Translations under genes and position numbers: made by a program
Part shown: in pieces, positions 47,323 to 55,564 of the stretch
Position numbering within the stretch: position 1 is the stretch's first letter
Layout of the letters: each line of letters starts with the position of its first letter
Notes under the pieces: model-generated
Told to the model about the DNA's origin: nothing
Databases searched by the model: none
The model's input: only the letters and a program-made list of their open reading frames with translations
Assembly (NCBI GenBank): GCA_964524795.1
Contig: CAZGEH010000003.1
Location: 78,675 to 142,674 of the forward strand
Reading direction: 5' to 3'
Length of the DNA stretch: 64,000 nt
Source of the DNA: an uncultured Acidobacteriota bacterium
Lineage (GTDB): Bacteria > Acidobacteriota > UBA6911 > RPQK01 > JAPXNP01

Positions 47323-49815
47323 ATGGCGGCGTTACCGCGAGGGTGCCGAGGTTGGGTGGTCCTGGCAGGGTCCGTTCTGGGTCTGGCCGTGGGGCCGTCC
47401 TGCGGAGGAGGGGGAGCAGGGGAACCGGCGGCGGTCCGCCTGGTTGACGTGTTTCCGTCCGCCACCGTCGAGGGAACTCCGGTGGATGTAACAGAACCCG
47501 ATCCCCTCGACTGGTGGAAGTTTGCCGAACCTCCGCCGAATACGATCGCCGCGGAGAGCCGTGCCACCTGGGGTTGGAAAGCATACGACGCCGTCTCCGG
47601 CCTGAAGCTCCGAGACGGACGGCTCACCGGTCGTACCAGCGGAGCCCTGCCGGTCCTGGCGGCCTCCCGCTTCACCAGCCTGGACGAGAGCGATCTGCTG
47701 CACGCGGTAGAGATCCGCATGCGGGTCAGTGCCGGCACCACCGTGACCATGGCAGCCTGGGGCGAAGCCGAACTCAAGACCCCCGAGCTGATCGGAATGC
47801 TCCGCGGAGCCCCGTTCCGCCTCCAGAGCCCGATCCTGCCGGGCGACGAGTTCCACACCTACACCCTGCAGCCCCCAATAGCCCAACCGCTCGCCCAGAT
47901 GAAGCACCTGATCGTCGTGCCCACCGACGCCGCCGGTGCGGATTTCGAGATCGACTCGATCCGGGTCATCTCCCGCCGGGAGCATCTGGCCAGAATCCCC
48001 TCGGGAGTCGGTTGGCAGGGCCTGTCCGAGATCTACCGGGAGACGGTCGTCGCCCGTTCCCCCGAGGTGATTCACCTGCCGCTGGAAGTTCCTCATGAGG
48101 CCTGGCTCGAACTCCATGTGGGAACCATCGAGCACGACCCGGTTACCTTCAGGGTGGGGGTCTCCGCCGGCGGTGAGGAGACTCCGCTGCTGGTGCGAAC
48201 GGTCACGGTCGCGCACCGGTGGGAGACGGTTCCCCTTGATCTTGCCGCCTATGGAGGCCGGAACGTGACCTTGAACCTGGGACTGGCAGCGGACGACCCC
48301 GGCAAGGTCGGCTTCTGGGGTGGAGTCACTTTGCGTCGGCGCGCCCCCGCGAGCCCGGTTGCCACTGACCGGAAGGCCGTATCCGTCTTGGGTGAAGCCG
48401 CCGGCCGGCCGCCTCAGGGTGTGATCCTGGTCGTGGCCGACACACTGCGCCGGGATCATCTGAATTTCCATGGCTACAGCCGCGAAACCGCCCCCTTCCT
48501 GGCGCAGCTTGCCGCTTCCGGGACGCTGTTCGAGGACAATATCGCACAGGCCACGTGGACTAAAGTCTCTGTCCCCTCCATGTTGACCTCCCTCTACCCG
48601 ACATCGAATCGCATCCACGACATTCCGGACCGACTCTCGGCGCAGGCCACCACCCTGGCAGAGATCTTCCGAGAAGCGGGATACGCGACCGTTGCCTATT
48701 CCTCGGTGCCCTTCACCGGCAAACTGACCAACCTGCATCAGGGATTCGAAGAGCTGCACGAGGTGACTTCGGTGCGCGCCGGGGAATCGCGCGAAAGCAA
48801 GACGGCCCGGGAGTATGTGGACCGCCTGACCCGCTGGCTCGAACTGCACGGCCGGGGACCGTTCTTTGTCTTTCTTCACGTCTTTGACCCCCACGATCCG
48901 TACGAACCCTTCCAGCCATACAACTCGCTTTGGGCCGATCTTTCCCGCAAGCCGGAACACGAACAGCAGCTCGAGACGGTTCGCAAGTTCATTGAAGACC
49001 CGTTGCTCAAGCGTTTCGGAATGCCCAGCCGCGAGGAATTCAGGGCGGCCGGCGTCGACGGGGACGCTTTCGTCGCTTACGACAAGGACTGGTACGACGG
49101 CTCGATCCGGGGAATGGACCGCGAAATTGCGCGGCTGGTGGAGCGACTGGGACAACTGGGCCTAAAACACCGTACGCTGCTGGTCTTTACCAGCGACCAT
49201 GGCGAGGAGTTTCTTGAACACGGTCGGACCTTCCACGGGCAGAATCTGTACGGAGAGCTGACCAACGTTCCCCTGTTTTTCCACTGGGAGGGTGTCGTTC
49301 CCGCCAACCTGCAGATCCAGAAAACCGTGCAGAACGTCGACATCATGCCGACGGTGCTGGCGCTGAGCCATTTGCCTGTCCCATCCGGGATTGCCGGACA
49401 GGACCTGCTGCCCCTGATGGCCTCGAAACAGCCAGGCGGCTCGTCGGCATCTCTCTCGGCGTCAGCCGCGGAACTCCGGCCGGCGATCTCCGAACGGCTG
49501 GAAACCCGGGCGCTTGCGGGGCCTCCGCCGCGGGGAACCGCCTCGGTGGCGCTCGTGCTGGACGGCTGGAAATTGATACACAACTACCAGCGTGTGGAGG
49601 GGCAACCGGAGTACGAGCTATACCGGCACCGCGAGGACCCGCTCAATTTCAACAATGTCGCCGCGGACAATCCCGAGGTAGTCTCCCGACTGGCCTCCGC
49701 GCTGGAAAAGTGGCGGGAGGCGGCCCTGGCGGCCCAGCTTCCCGAGGCGGACTCCACGGAAGGCCTCAGCCGCGAAGAACTGGAGCGCCTCAGAAGCCTG
49801 GGCTATGTCCAATAG
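47323..49815 (+). CDS. Sulfatase-like hydrolase/transferase (alkaline-phosphatase superfamily) with about 340-aa N-terminal domain of unknown function; lipoprotein
   Basis: Start MAALPRGCRGWVVLAGSVLGLAVGPSCGG (lipobox). The C-terminal half carries the sulfatase fold (VILVVADTLRRDHLNFHGY...FVFLHVFDPHDPY...FTSDHGE), but the formylglycine motif C/S-x-P-x-R is replaced by T-W-T-K-V-S-V-P-S-M. Confidence 0.65.
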   Translation: MAALPRGCRGWVVLAGSVLGLAVGPSCGGGGAGEPAAVRLVDVFPSATVEGTPVDVTEPDPLDWWKFAEPPPNTIAAESRATWGWKAYDAVSGLKLRDGRLTGRTSGALPVLAASRFTSLDESDLLHAVEIRMRVSAGTTVTMAAWGEAELKTPELIGMLRGAPFRLQSPILPGDEFHTYTLQPPIAQPLAQMKHLIVVPTDAAGADFEIDSIRVISRREHLARIPSGVGWQGLSEIYRETVVARSPEVIHLPLEVPHEAWLELHVGTIEHDPVTFRVGVSAGGEETPLLVRTVTVAHRWETVPLDLAAYGGRNVTLNLGLAADDPGKVGFWGGVTLRRRAPASPVATDRKAVSVLGEAAGRPPQGVILVVADTLRRDHLNFHGYSRETAPFLAQLAASGTLFEDNIAQATWTKVSVPSMLTSLYPTSNRIHDIPDRLSAQATTLAEIFREAGYATVAYSSVPFTGKLTNLHQGFEELHEVTSVRAGESRESKTAREYVDRLTRWLELHGRGPFFVFLHVFDPHDPYEPFQPYNSLWADLSRKPEHEQQLETVRKFIEDPLLKRFGMPSREEFRAAGVDGDAFVAYDKDWYDGSIRGMDREIARLVERLGQLGLKHRTLLVFTSDHGEEFLEHGRTFHGQNLYGELTNVPLFFHWEGVVPANLQIQKTVQNVDIMPTVLALSHLPVPSGIAGQDLLPLMASKQPGGSSASLSASAAELRPAISERLETRALAGPPPRGTASVALVLDGWKLIHNYQRVEGQPEYELYRHREDPLNFNNVAADNPEVVSRLASALEKWREAALAAQLPEADSTEGLSREELERLRSLGYVQ

Positions 49816-54952: not shown

Positions 54953-55564
54953 ATGCGTTGGCTGAGATCGATCCGTTACCGGTGGATGCAACCTGTCACC
55001 GTCGTCTCGGGACTGCCCCGGTCAGGTACCTCCATGACAGTCAAGATGCTGGAGGCGGGGGGGCTCCCCGTTTACACCGACCGGGCACGCCGTCCGGATA
55101 TCGACAACCCGGGTGGGTACTACGAGTTCGAAAGGGTGAAGCGCCTGGCGGAAGAGACAGACAAACACTGGGTCGCCGAGTGCCGGGGCAAGGTGCTGAA
55201 GGTTATCTCCTTCCTGCTGCCCGATCTGCCCTCTGAACTGGCTTACCGGGTGGTGTTCATGTCGCGGGATCTGGACGAGGTGGTGGCGTCCCAGAACAAG
55301 ATGCTGCAACGGCGGGGCGAGCCGTTGCAGGATGATGGGGTGGTCAGGCGCATGTTCGAGGACCATCTGCTGCGAATCGGCCGCTGGATCGCGCAGCAAC
55401 CGAATTTCCGGCTGCTGGAGGTGCCGTATGCGGAGGTGGTGCGGTCGCCCGAGCTCCAGGCCCGCCGCATTCGCGATTTCCTGGGCGACCCTCGGCTGGA
55501 TGTCCTGAAGATGGCGGAGGTGGTGAATCCGGAGCTGTACCGCAACCGCTCGGCAAGCATCTGA
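54953..55564 (+). CDS. Sulfotransferase-family protein (PAPS-dependent)
   Basis: VVSGLPRSGTSM is the 5'-PSB P-loop of sulfotransferases (PKSGTTW-like), and RVVFMSRD is 3'-PB-like. 203 aa. Confidence 0.6.
   Translation: MRWLRSIRYRWMQPVTVVSGLPRSGTSMTVKMLEAGGLPVYTDRARRPDIDNPGGYYEFERVKRLAEETDKHWVAECRGKVLKVISFLLPDLPSELAYRVVFMSRDLDEVVASQNKMLQRRGEPLQDDGVVRRMFEDHLLRIGRWIAQQPNFRLLEVPYAEVVRSPELQARRIRDFLGDPRLDVLKMAEVVNPELYRNRSASI

Follow-up and report, generated by a model that had tools for sequence, protein, structure and literature searches.

A conserved four-gene core was identified within a six-gene operon at positions 47323-55564 of the window, the 64,000-nucleotide stretch of DNA analyzed here. 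Our best explanation, to which we assign a probability of roughly 40%, is that the operon encodes a self-contained, membrane-spanning enzyme assembly for sulfate-ester transfer, for which we infer both the acceptor and the chemistry. The initial annotation of this DNA knew of no characterized pathway with such a gene combination, and our search of the literature likewise found none described.

All six ORFs were confirmed as co-directional on the + strand. They encode g1 (47323-49815; 830 aa from an ATG, with an alternative TTG start possible at 47302), g2, designated NPPa (49805-51943; 712 aa), g3, designated NPPb (51940-53904; 654 aa), g4 (53919-54110; 63 aa, from a GTG start with AAGGAGG 7 nt upstream), g5 (54107-54946; a 279-aa membrane protein), and g6 (54953-55564; a 203-aa PAPS-type sulfotransferase predicted to be cytoplasmic). 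Five of the six ORFs have a GC3 of 0.77-0.82 and the codon pattern of real genes, g4 being too short for this codon test. The junctions proved as tight as first described, with overlaps of 4-11 nt and gaps of 6-14 nt: g1 and g2 overlap by 11 nt, g2 and g3 by 4 nt, and g4 and g5 by 4 nt, while gaps of 14 nt and 6 nt separate g3 from g4 and g5 from g6, respectively. Because the genes overlap or sit close together and their order is conserved, g1-g6 likely form one operon, as had been proposed. Terminator-like sites within the operon show no excess (7, compared with 6.6 expected from shuffled sequence). Pfam searches upheld the families originally claimed for g1, g2, g3, and g6, and none of the six proteins matched anti-phage defense models (PADLOC) at E <= 0.01.

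Conservation covers only part of the operon, namely g2-g5. Related loci were chosen via g4, such that all statistics are conditional on the presence of g4, and all were taken from metagenome-assembled genomes. The order NPPa-NPPb-g4-g5 is kept in virtually all of the 80 genome loci, which span at least 10 bacterial phyla and come in every case from uncultured organisms, and also in the loci from metagenomes. In the 49 loci that are fully covered, NPPa is present 47 times, NPPb 48 times, and g5 49 times. The sulfatase-like gene g1 was found in 10 of these 49 loci (~20%) and is a lineage-restricted accessory. Synteny across the 80 loci is thus far beyond chance for g2-g5, and g6 is usually adjacent, but the full six-gene set, which had been taken for the functional unit, is not what is conserved; the unit is the core plus a sulfotransferase or a PAPS-synthesis set. 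It could be argued that chance alone has brought together hydrolases, a regulator, and a membrane protein that have no function in common, as the flanking genes vary between loci and g1 accompanies the core in only some of them. This is extremely improbable, since the recurrence of the same four-gene order in so many loci and phyla contradicts it, neighboring genes have coupled stop and start codons, genes of PAPS metabolism recur by the core, and a C-terminal tag is common to proteins of the module.

The two large core proteins, g2 and g3, match Phosphodiest (PF01663) with E-values of 5e-28 and 9e-31 (99.1 and 108.2 bits, cut-off 23), each match being interrupted by an insert, and are paralogous (E = 1e-134). 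Among 62 NPPa and 51 NPPb homologues, conservation reaches 97% or more for the motifs GLDG, (E/L)SPVAW, DxxDxxxH/VDQGCH, SDHG, and SGDH. Both proteins have the NPP-type fold and, with roles assigned by motif, are putative two-metal enzymes with a Ser nucleophile (ESPVAW in NPPa). No PDB relative was found for either by sequence, and their identity to members of the NPP/PhnA clade (ENPP4, ENPP6, ENPP7, Xanthomonas NPP, and phosphonoacetate hydrolase) is 14-17%. They differ from this clade in that the nucleophile is Ser where that of NPP is Thr, in a beta-rich insert of about 110 aa (at about aa 254-365 in NPPa), in their constant pairing with g4 and g5, and in the predicted placement of the paralogues, one tethered at the cytoplasmic face and the other exported. 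The N-terminus of NPPa comprises a helix resembling a signal peptide, a small-x-small site (positions -3 and -1 ahead of YIGPGAG hold small residues in 62/62 homologues), a conserved YIGPGAG transmembrane helix, and a K/R-rich linker (median 8 K/R and 0 D/E in the 62 homologues), and because of this layout the protein is predicted to be membrane-tethered with its catalytic domain on the cytoplasmic side. NPPb has an N-terminal signal peptide and is predicted to be exported to the periplasm, usually as a lipoprotein; of 51 homologues, 42 have a Cys immediately ahead of the catalytic domain and 25 match a strict lipobox, and the copy in the window is without the lipobox Cys. The original description of two paralogous membrane-anchored phosphodiesterase-like proteins therefore holds for their paralogy but not for their equivalence, the opposite topologies having gone unremarked. 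NPP-type enzymes normally cleave phosphodiesters, and to our knowledge sulfuryl transfer by such enzymes is not established.

A tie to sulfate activation is provided by g6 and by the neighbors of the core. The g6 protein matches Sulfotransfer_3 (PF13469; 5e-12, 46.9 bits against a gathering cut-off of 27) and also Sulfotransfer_1 (23.9 bits against a gathering cut-off of 22). No variation was seen among 38 homologues at V18-S27 (VSGLPRSGTS), R105, or S113, and we take GLPRSGTS to be the 5'-PSB loop and R105-x7-S113 the 3'-PB (R-x7-S) motif. The 5'-PSB region aligns weakly with human TPST1 and TPST2 (E about 1e-4), and the C-terminal half, just as weakly, with phenol/tyrosine-ester sulfotransferases (E about 1e-4). 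In the fully covered loci a sulfotransferase is encoded adjacent to the core in 36 cases (73%), and an APS kinase is present in 11 and an ATP sulfurylase in 12; within 10 kb, 42/49 loci encode a PAPS-type sulfotransferase or an APS kinase, and the other 7 encode neither. Two loci (L069 and L059) have genes for ATP sulfurylase (2.5e-98), APS kinase (8.8e-61), and two short NPP-like proteins directly upstream of the core, and the neighbors, though heterogeneous in other respects, repeatedly include CysQ-like and CysN-like genes. Because the sulfotransferase (about 45 loci) and the short NPP-like genes (about 14 loci) never occur together in one locus, they appear to replace one another. The core nearly always has a companion from PAPS metabolism, either a sulfotransferase, as here, or an ATP sulfurylase and APS kinase with two short cytosolic NPP-like enzymes. 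The link to sulfation drawn in the initial annotation is hence stronger than that sequence alone showed, as related loci encode ATP sulfurylase, APS kinase, and CysQ-like proteins.

These same genes, however, also serve assimilation, and the NPP/PhnA-type fold with intact hydrolytic motifs, the predicted export of NPPb and g1, and the appearance of PPK2 twice among the neighbor genes would all suit a system for nutrient scavenging, in which NPPb, g1, and NPPa act as phosphodiesterases or ester hydrolases of the usual kind and release the phosphate or sulfate of organic esters, g4 controls their transcription, and the genes for the sulfotransferase and for PAPS are neighbors by way of sulfur assimilation. 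We think this improbable: the predicted location of the NPPa catalytic domain is cytoplasmic, the neighbor genes include no transporter or Pho-type gene with a consistent link to the module, and scavenging leaves unexplained why a DUF106-type membrane protein is kept in strict order with the other genes, the conservation of g4 across phyla, the tag on APS kinase, and a dedicated PAPS-consuming sulfotransferase in nearly three-quarters of the loci.

The small protein g4 is 63-86% identical across phyla, is conserved along its whole length, has no signal peptide, and ends in the C-terminal tag. It matched no Pfam family above threshold and no PDB entry. Sub-threshold matches of RHH type were obtained (PSK_trans_fac, 0.014-0.038; DUF6364, 0.007; RHH_1, 0.081; CcdA, 0.17), several homologues are named CopG/Arc/MetJ regulators by JGI, and hhalign placed a CopG sequence in the expected register with a probability of only 1.9%; from sub-threshold matches only, g4 is thus described as RHH-like. 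The sulfotransferase/NPPa intergenic regions hold no conserved palindrome, and only a TACACT-like -10 element recurs there. A role for g4 as the RHH antitoxin of a type II toxin-antitoxin system was rejected, as no toxin is adjacent and its neighbors in the loci compared are always NPPb and g5.

The tag itself, L-[RK]-x-L-G-Y-[ILV], was absent from the initial annotation and is common to g4, sulfatase-like lipoproteins, tagged APS kinases, and further AP-superfamily enzymes. In the window it forms the C-termini of g1 (49768..49812, + strand; SREELERLRSLGYVQ) and g4 (54060..54107, + strand; SEEEIKKRLRGLGYIS). The GLGYIS of g4 is invariant or nearly so in 77 distinct sequences. Across the loci the tag was found in 91 copies of g4 and in 33 other matches, 27 of which lie within one residue of the C-terminus. 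The carriers other than g4 are sulfatase-fold proteins (having either a lipoprotein signal or five TM helices), APS kinases, a second RHH family, and a second NPP pair, and carriers are predicted on both sides of the membrane. As a short, linker-joined C-terminal helix common to otherwise unrelated enzymes of one pathway, the tag resembles the cargo-loading peptides of encapsulins, the encapsulation peptides of microcompartments, and the membrane-targeting helices of MinD/FtsA. It differs from all of these in being placed on both cytoplasmic and exported proteins, and from the encapsulin and microcompartment peptides in that no shell protein was found in the loci; we know of no encapsulin, microcompartment, or MinD/FtsA signal that resembles the L-G-Y core.

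The Tyr is invariant in every tag, and it could itself be the acceptor of g6, with NPPa and NPPb reading or removing the mark in a regulatory PTM cycle. Such tyrosine sulfation, which we consider unlikely, would fit a self-contained module with no other acceptor-making genes, the membership of g6 in Sulfotransfer_3 with its alignments to TPST1/TPST2 and phenol/tyrosine-ester sulfotransferases, and a conservation of g4 far above that of an ordinary regulator. Those weak alignments, however, cover the PAPS-binding motifs that every such enzyme has, the acidic residues do not adjoin the Tyr but are 9-13 positions away, and the tag is also borne by exported lipoproteins and by proteins in loci without such a sulfotransferase within 10 kb. 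The arrangement is like RaxST-RaxX/TPST in that a PF13469-type PAPS sulfotransferase is encoded beside a protein of ~60 aa with an invariant Tyr, but the module includes no peptidase-containing ABC exporter and no leader peptide, and g4, unlike RaxX, is a putative folded RHH-like domain, with its tag also found on enzymes. A RaxST/RaxX-type system was rejected, since ABC transporter genes are not a regular feature of the loci and g4 is conserved from end to end.

For g5, no Pfam family scored above threshold (EMC3_TMCO1, PF01956, reached only E = 0.28, in 2/20 members). A profile of 60 homologues matches MJ0480 (5c8j) with E = 2.3e-10 over query residues 8-121. Three TM helices are predicted; a cytoplasmic helical hairpin separates TM1 from TM2, and an Ig-like beta-sandwich at about aa 135-254, predicted to be periplasmic, separates TM2 from TM3. 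By profile similarity, g5 is a predicted bacterial DUF106/Oxa1-superfamily-type membrane protein related to Ylp1 and TMCO1, a character missing from the initial annotation. DUF106 has been described as archaeal and eukaryotic (PMC5868721). From the members of this branch (archaeal Ylp1/MJ0480, TMCO1, EMC3, and Get1), g5 differs in being bacterial, in having the Ig-like domain of about 120 aa, and in being encoded within an enzyme operon and not as a housekeeping insertase.

Its kinship to Ylp1 and TMCO1 would also allow g5 to be a dedicated insertase or chaperone for the NPPa hairpin anchor, and perhaps for other module proteins, with the tag as a generic amphipathic membrane-targeting helix and g4 as a repressor pulled to the membrane. 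Oxa1-superfamily insertases take simple substrates with small translocated regions (PMC5868721), and the predicted two-helix hairpin of NPPa, with its very short loop, is exactly of this kind; the tag in turn lies at the very end of its protein and shows a helical spacing of basic and hydrophobic residues. We nevertheless doubt that membrane biogenesis is the purpose of the module, because the hydrophobic moment of the tag is unremarkable (0.38-0.57, within the range of control C-termini, whose median is 0.38 and 90th percentile 0.61), the near-invariant L-G-Y argues for specific recognition, YidC is presumably also available in these bacteria, and the chemistry is left unexplained. This reading is partly compatible with the sulfate-ester assembly.

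The accessory protein g1 contains a Sulfatase domain (PF00884) at residues 367-681 (3.5e-44, 151.8 bits against a cut-off of 25) and an N-domain of about 340 aa with no Pfam or PDB relative by sequence; the first ~360 residues match no Pfam family. Its signal peptide is of the lipoprotein kind, with Cys27 invariant, and the protein is predicted to be exported. Full-length orthologues (39-52% identity) are encoded beside NPPa in four loci (L023, L030, L010, and L071). Where C/S-x-P-x-R would be expected g1 reads TWTKVSVPSM, with the Thr, which is kept in the four orthologues, aligned to the formylglycine Cys; the previously noted absence of the motif is confirmed, and a formylglycine-dependent sulfatase (S1) is ruled out. 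The further proposal that g1 is of LtaS/EptA type rather than a classical sulfatase gains support from the alignment of this Thr motif with the Thr-nucleophile region of EptA/MCR-1, as residues 339-424 can be aligned both to the models P_eth_NH2_trans and MCR, with E = 6e-14 or weaker, and to structures of MCR-1, with E about 1e-9. With EptA/MCR-1, LtaS, and OpgB, g1 shares the sulfatase fold, the putative Thr-nucleophile segment (T-x-x-S-V-P-x-M), and export. It differs from them in having a lipoprotein signal peptide and a soluble ~340-aa N-domain in place of a five-TM N-terminal domain, in ending in the LGY tag, in scoring 51 bits against a cut-off of 500 for the EptA/MCR/LtaS family models, with all NCBIfam scores for such families far under their cut-offs, and in a C-terminal half that is closer to true sulfatases and phosphonate monoester hydrolases.

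In the sulfate-ester assembly that we favor, g6 and NPPa would use PAPS at the cytoplasmic face to esterify a membrane-embedded acceptor, either a lipid or a lipid-linked group. The g5 protein would join both halves and possibly move the modified head-group over the bilayer or insert the NPPa hairpin anchor, and in the periplasm the ester would then be transferred or trimmed by NPPb, together with the EptA-like g1 where present. The tag would act as a docking peptide through which accessory enzymes join the core, whether in the cytoplasm or in the periplasm, with g4 as an adaptor or sequestrable regulator that uses the same docking site. The AP-superfamily sulfatase-like proteins VNG1056C and VNG1057C of Halobacterium salinarum, reported as sulfotransferases of a dolichol-phosphate-linked glycan, provide a precedent for AP-superfamily enzymes adding sulfate (PMC11980604). 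By description they are like the module enzymes in that one is membrane-bound and the other soluble, and they are implicated in adding, not removing, sulfate on a lipid-linked substrate (PMC11980604). They are, however, archaeal, of the sulfatase type, and part of an N-glycosylation pathway, whereas g2 and g3 are of the NPP type, and no RHH-like, DUF106-like, or tag components are described with them. The glycoconjugate target originally suggested found nothing specific in its favor: the flanks are heterogeneous (140 Pfam families in 128 nearest neighbors), glycosyltransferases adjoin the module in one locus only (L007), and no lipid- or glycan-biosynthesis gene among the neighbor genes travels consistently with the module.

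Upstream of g1, a palindrome at 47088..47171 has 27-nt arms that are 85% complementary (47095-47171) and contains an internal direct repeat, GGATCCCGCGGATGA, twice as well as an inverted copy. Because it starts 22 nt past the stop codon of an upstream 355-aa ORF, it may be the terminator of that gene or a repeat element rather than an operator; its 12-mer core occurs 8 times in the window (<=1 mismatch), compared with 1.5 expected. A sigma-70-like promoter match at 47240..47269 (+ strand; TTGACT, 18-nt spacer, GATACT) is a consensus match only, and such sites are not in excess in this region (1, compared with 1.1 in shuffled sequence). Of the promoter-like region with a large palindrome that had been annotated here, the palindrome is real, but its promoter or operator role was not borne out. 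Beyond the other end of the module, a separate MNT/HEPN pair lies at 56704-57365.

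All six + strand ORFs that the initial annotation had grouped as an operon (47323-55564) were found at exactly the positions it had assigned, and Pfam bore out the families it had named for g1, g2, g3, and g6. The sulfatase-fold lipoprotein g1 (47323-49815) matched Sulfatase across residues 367-681 (3.5e-44), the NPP-type paralogues g2 (NPPa, 49805-51943) and g3 (NPPb, 51940-53904) each matched Phosphodiest, with the match cut in two by an insert, and the PAPS-type sulfotransferase g6 (54953-55564) matched Sulfotransfer_3. The 63-aa RHH-like protein g4 (53919-54110) and the 279-aa membrane protein g5 (54107-54946) are without a Pfam family match. 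The five long ORFs (g1, g2, g3, g5, and g6) have the GC3-rich codon usage of real genes in a window of 64% G+C, and g4 begins with a GTG codon preceded by a strong AAGGAGG site. From g1/g2 to g5/g6, the junctions measure -11, -4, +14, -4, and +6 nt in order, and terminator-like sites are not more common in the interior of the operon than in shuffled sequence. The exact g4 protein is on record from an Acidobacteriota metagenome-assembled genome (MAG), with identical DNA on JGI metagenome contigs, and the database record of g5 starts four residues downstream of the start first taken.

A search with g5 returned only 23 relatives, on contigs with an NPP-NPP-small-membrane-sulfotransferase arrangement that is without the sulfatase gene. 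The small protein g4 is far more widespread than g5, with at least 1809 clusters at 90% identity and 673 representatives at 50% identity (E <= 1e-3); the names of the cluster members include no cultured organism. Across species-representative genomes, 259 loci containing g4 were confirmed, and 80 of these loci were fetched and analysed. They derive from Acidobacteriota (several classes), Gemmatimonadota, Entotheonella, Eisenbacteria, Methylomirabilota, Sumerlaeota, Myxococcota, Omnitrophota, Verrucomicrobiales, Thermodesulfobacteriota, Hebobacteria, and unclassified bacteria, and are MAGs throughout, so that the comparative data consist solely of metagenome assemblies. When the six window proteins were compared with all ORFs of these loci, which were called as the longest ORF and may be over-extended, the order g2-g3-g4-g5 was identical in essentially all sufficiently long loci.

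Components were then counted in those 49 loci whose flanks extend for at least 7 kb on the upstream side and at least 2.5 kb on the downstream side; because the loci were chosen via g4, the counts apply to g4-bearing loci. The membrane protein g5 was present in 49/49, NPPb in 48/49, and NPPa in 47/49, the remaining two being frameshifted, and the distance from the NPPb stop to the g4 start was mostly 0-30 nt. A sulfotransferase was encoded in 36/49 loci, an ATP sulfurylase in 12/49, an APS kinase in 11/49, and either a sulfotransferase or an APS kinase in 42/49. The sulfatase-fold protein was found in 10/49. The six-gene unit initially proposed is thus conserved in order for g2-g5 but not for g1, and is better described as a four-gene core (g2-g5) with a sulfur-activation or sulfur-transfer partner, to which g1 is accessory. 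Full-length orthologues of g1, including its N-domain, adjoin the core in L023, L030, L010, and L071 (39-52% identity). Assigning the 128 nearest other neighbours to Pfam gave a heterogeneous picture of 140 families, the few recurrent ones including the CysQ-like inositol-monophosphatase family (4), EF-Tu-type GTPases of the CysN kind (2), and APS kinase (2). Since the neighbours are so varied, the module looks self-contained, with PAPS as its sole consistent theme.

The loci that encode no g6-type sulfotransferase (L059 and L069) reveal a second form of the module, in which a different gene set lies upstream of the core. This set consists of a second small RHH-like protein, an ATP sulfurylase (PUA_2 plus ATP-sulfurylase, 2.5e-98), a short (about 460 aa) NPP-like protein with neither a TM helix nor a signal peptide, an APS kinase (8.8e-61), and a second short NPP-like protein. 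Sulfotransferase genes and short NPP-like genes are mutually exclusive across the loci, and because they never share a locus, the short NPP-like genes may functionally substitute for the sulfotransferase, although lineage effects could also produce this pattern. A second NPP-like pair (748 and 758 aa) is encoded 3.5 kb downstream of the core in L069 (14504-19027), each protein having five predicted N-terminal TM helices.

The two NPP paralogues of the core are predicted to face opposite sides of the membrane. In all 62 NPPa homologues, the N-terminus comprises a signal-peptide-like hydrophobic segment with small residues at -3/-1, followed by Y-[IVL]-G-P-G-A-G and a transmembrane helix, and the linker ahead of the first strand of the catalytic domain is basic, with medians of 8 Lys/Arg and 0 acidic residues. 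Under the positive-inside rule, these features predict a cytoplasmic enzyme domain for NPPa. In NPPb the signal peptide runs directly into the catalytic domain, ahead of which a Cys occurs in 42/51 homologues and a strict lipobox in 25/51; the window copy is without the Cys. This pattern, together with the signal peptide, predicts that NPPb is exported.

In the AF2 model of g5, which is confident (pLDDT 89), an N-terminal helix and TM1 are followed by a basic helical hairpin, and TM2 is separated from TM3 by a beta-sandwich of about 120 residues. A profile built from 60 homologues matched the archaeal YidC-like protein MJ0480/Ylp1 (E = 2.3e-10), the Pfam DUF106 model barely touched g5, and a Foldseek search of the PDB with g5 gave only weak Ig-like matches for the insert. 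The modelled architecture agrees with how the Oxa1 superfamily has been defined (PMC5868721). The DUF106 branch of that superfamily is described as archaeal and eukaryotic (PMC5868721), whereas g5 is bacterial.

The small protein g4 is conserved from end to end, with 63-86% identity across phyla and invariant or nearly invariant MFG, AGYSS, EF, H, LEKE, SEEE, and GLGYIS segments. Its pattern fits a ribbon-helix-helix domain, all matches to RHH families being sub-threshold, and hhalign gives clear evidence of homology (probability 96%) with the second small protein found in the variant loci. A toxin-antitoxin reading was rejected, as g4 has no toxin partner. A conserved operator for g4 was sought in the true sulfotransferase/NPPa intergenic regions, where only a TACACT-like -10 box was common; k-mers counted upstream of NPPa came mostly from the coding sequence of the divergent sulfotransferase. 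A (G)GTACACTA-like element recurs 10-20 nt ahead of the NPPa start in L019, L020, L038, L054, L060, L066, and other sulfotransferase/NPPa intergenic regions, pointing to a -10 box followed by very little leader or none. Apparent NPPb-g4 and g4-g5 fusions were discarded as evidence of topology, the long matches from the search of representatives being over-extended ORFs or frameshifts, with a clean in-frame read-through only in L027. In this Entotheonella MAG (L027, 7991-10192), NPPb and g4 share one frame with no stop between them (...GQDCLAPKRPSRLHKEMMMFGPKVKL...), a single case from one MAG that, if real, would fuse g4 to an exported enzyme, at odds with a cytoplasmic g4.

The C-termini of g1 (...SREELERLRSLGYVQ) and g4 (...SEEEIKKRLRGLGYIS) share a motif, L-[RK]-x-L-G-Y-[ILV], hereafter the LGY tag. 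All locus ORFs were scanned with the relaxed pattern L-[RKQ]-x-[LM]-G-Y-[ILVMF], which was found in 91 g4 copies and in 33 other ORFs, in 27 of which it lies no more than one residue from the C-terminus. The motif occurs on sulfatase-fold proteins that have either a lipoprotein signal peptide or five TM helices at the N-terminus, on both members of the second NPP-like pair of L069, on the APS kinases encoded in the variant loci, and on the second small-protein family. The tag is thus borne by cytoplasmic proteins (APS kinase and g4) and exported proteins alike, and there are only three candidates for reading it on both sides of the membrane: the NPPa/NPPb pair, g5, and the membrane itself. Just ahead of it lies an acidic stretch, often opening with Ser, Thr, or Asp in a way that may correspond to a helix N-cap. 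Given that the tag has a hydrophobic moment unremarkable relative to control C-termini and a near-invariant L-G-Y, we favour specific docking; a generic amphipathic membrane-targeting helix is retained as a minor rival only, the moment not being exceptional. A cargo signal for an encapsulin or microcompartment was rejected because the neighbours include no shell genes and exported proteins are tagged too. In the window, the ATG of g2 arises within the TAT GTC that encodes Tyr-Val in the g1 tag (49800-49815), physically coupling the end of the tag to the start of the next gene. A 113-aa protein of the representative library (P0264) contains the g4 domain in tandem duplicate, with the full LGY tag on the second copy only.

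The PAPS-binding motifs of g6 are invariant. In profile comparisons its N-terminal loop weakly matched TPST enzymes, and its C-terminal half weakly matched phenol sulfotransferases. In g1 the lipoprotein Cys is invariant, and, as had been pointed out from the sequence, the protein has no formylglycine Cys; unlike sulfatases it has Thr at that position, in a motif that aligns with EptA/MCR-1. The first ~360 residues of g1 matched no Pfam family, and its N-domain has no sequence relative in Pfam or the PDB, even with a five-sequence profile.

We know of no general bacterial means of delivering activated sulfate past the cytoplasm, and to our knowledge hardly any work exists on the sulfated envelope molecules of Acidobacteriota, Gemmatimonadota, and candidate phyla. 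A conserved module coupling PAPS metabolism to paired enzymes on both membrane faces would be a concrete candidate for such delivery. Our preferred but tentative reading takes the module as a membrane-spanning machine that would use PAPS-derived sulfate on the inner side, with NPPb and g1 processing on the outer side, g5 as a structural bridge and possibly a translocation or insertion device, the LGY tag as the assembly signal, and g4 as an adaptor or sequestrable regulator. Its main rivals are sulfation of the tyrosine in the tag itself, plain ester scavenging, and a role of g5 confined to inserting the NPPa anchor. A bolder reading, to which we assign a probability of only about 15%, is a dedicated extracytoplasmic sulfation route spread across many uncultured phyla. 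In that case, sulfate derived from PAPS would be loaded on the cytoplasmic side of the membrane and handed across by a complex in which g5 joins NPPa to NPPb, with AP-superfamily (alkaline-phosphatase superfamily) enzymes acting as sulfuryl transferases. The LGY helix would then be a novel docking signal, recognised on either face, that directs assembly of APS kinase inside, EptA-like lipoproteins outside, and g4 as a small RHH-like adaptor or regulator. Sulfuryl transfer by AP-fold enzymes is made less far-fetched by a report that sulfatase-like AP-superfamily proteins of Halobacterium salinarum are sulfotransferases acting on a lipid-linked glycan (PMC11980604).

Each protein of the module belongs to or resembles a known superfamily. 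The combination matched nothing in NCBIfam, where all scores fell far below family cut-offs, PADLOC gave no match, so that a defence system was rejected, and literature searches for the gene combination, COG3379, and the tag strings turned up nothing of relevance. To the extent covered by these searches, the core of two NPP paralogues of predicted opposite orientation, the bacterial DUF106-type protein, the ultra-conserved g4, and the pathway-wide C-terminal tag are undescribed. On these grounds we rate the module as categorically new at the system level, its function being putative. Whatever the mechanism, the data include a bacterial DUF106/Oxa1 member, a conserved 63-aa protein, and a portable tag on unrelated pathway enzymes, and hundreds of clusters now named "alkaline phosphatase family protein" or "hypothetical protein" could receive more precise names.

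In this genome, and not in others, the operon is surrounded by carbohydrate-active genes. A GH129 glycoside hydrolase gene (43079-45586) is followed by a 355-aa ORF immediately upstream of the operon (45999-47066), which shows good codon bias, is likewise present on the source contig, and had no match in Pfam or NCBIfam. The large palindrome previously placed in a promoter-like region is real, with 27-nt arms of 85% complementarity, but it starts only 22 nt past the stop codon of the preceding ORF, which makes any connection with the operon promoter putative. Downstream lie genes for a CelD_N-containing, GH9 cellulase-like protein (58734-61544) and a sugar-transfer-associated ATP-grasp protein (61952-63076, - strand). 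Between the operon and these genes, an 89-nt direct repeat (55908-55996 and 57574-57662, 94% identical) flanks a toxin-antitoxin-type nucleotidyltransferase/HEPN (MNT-HEPN) gene pair (56704-57024 and 57021-57365), and the pair and repeat may represent a joint insertion. At 57646-57675 there is a sub-threshold match to the Acido-Lenti-1 RNA.
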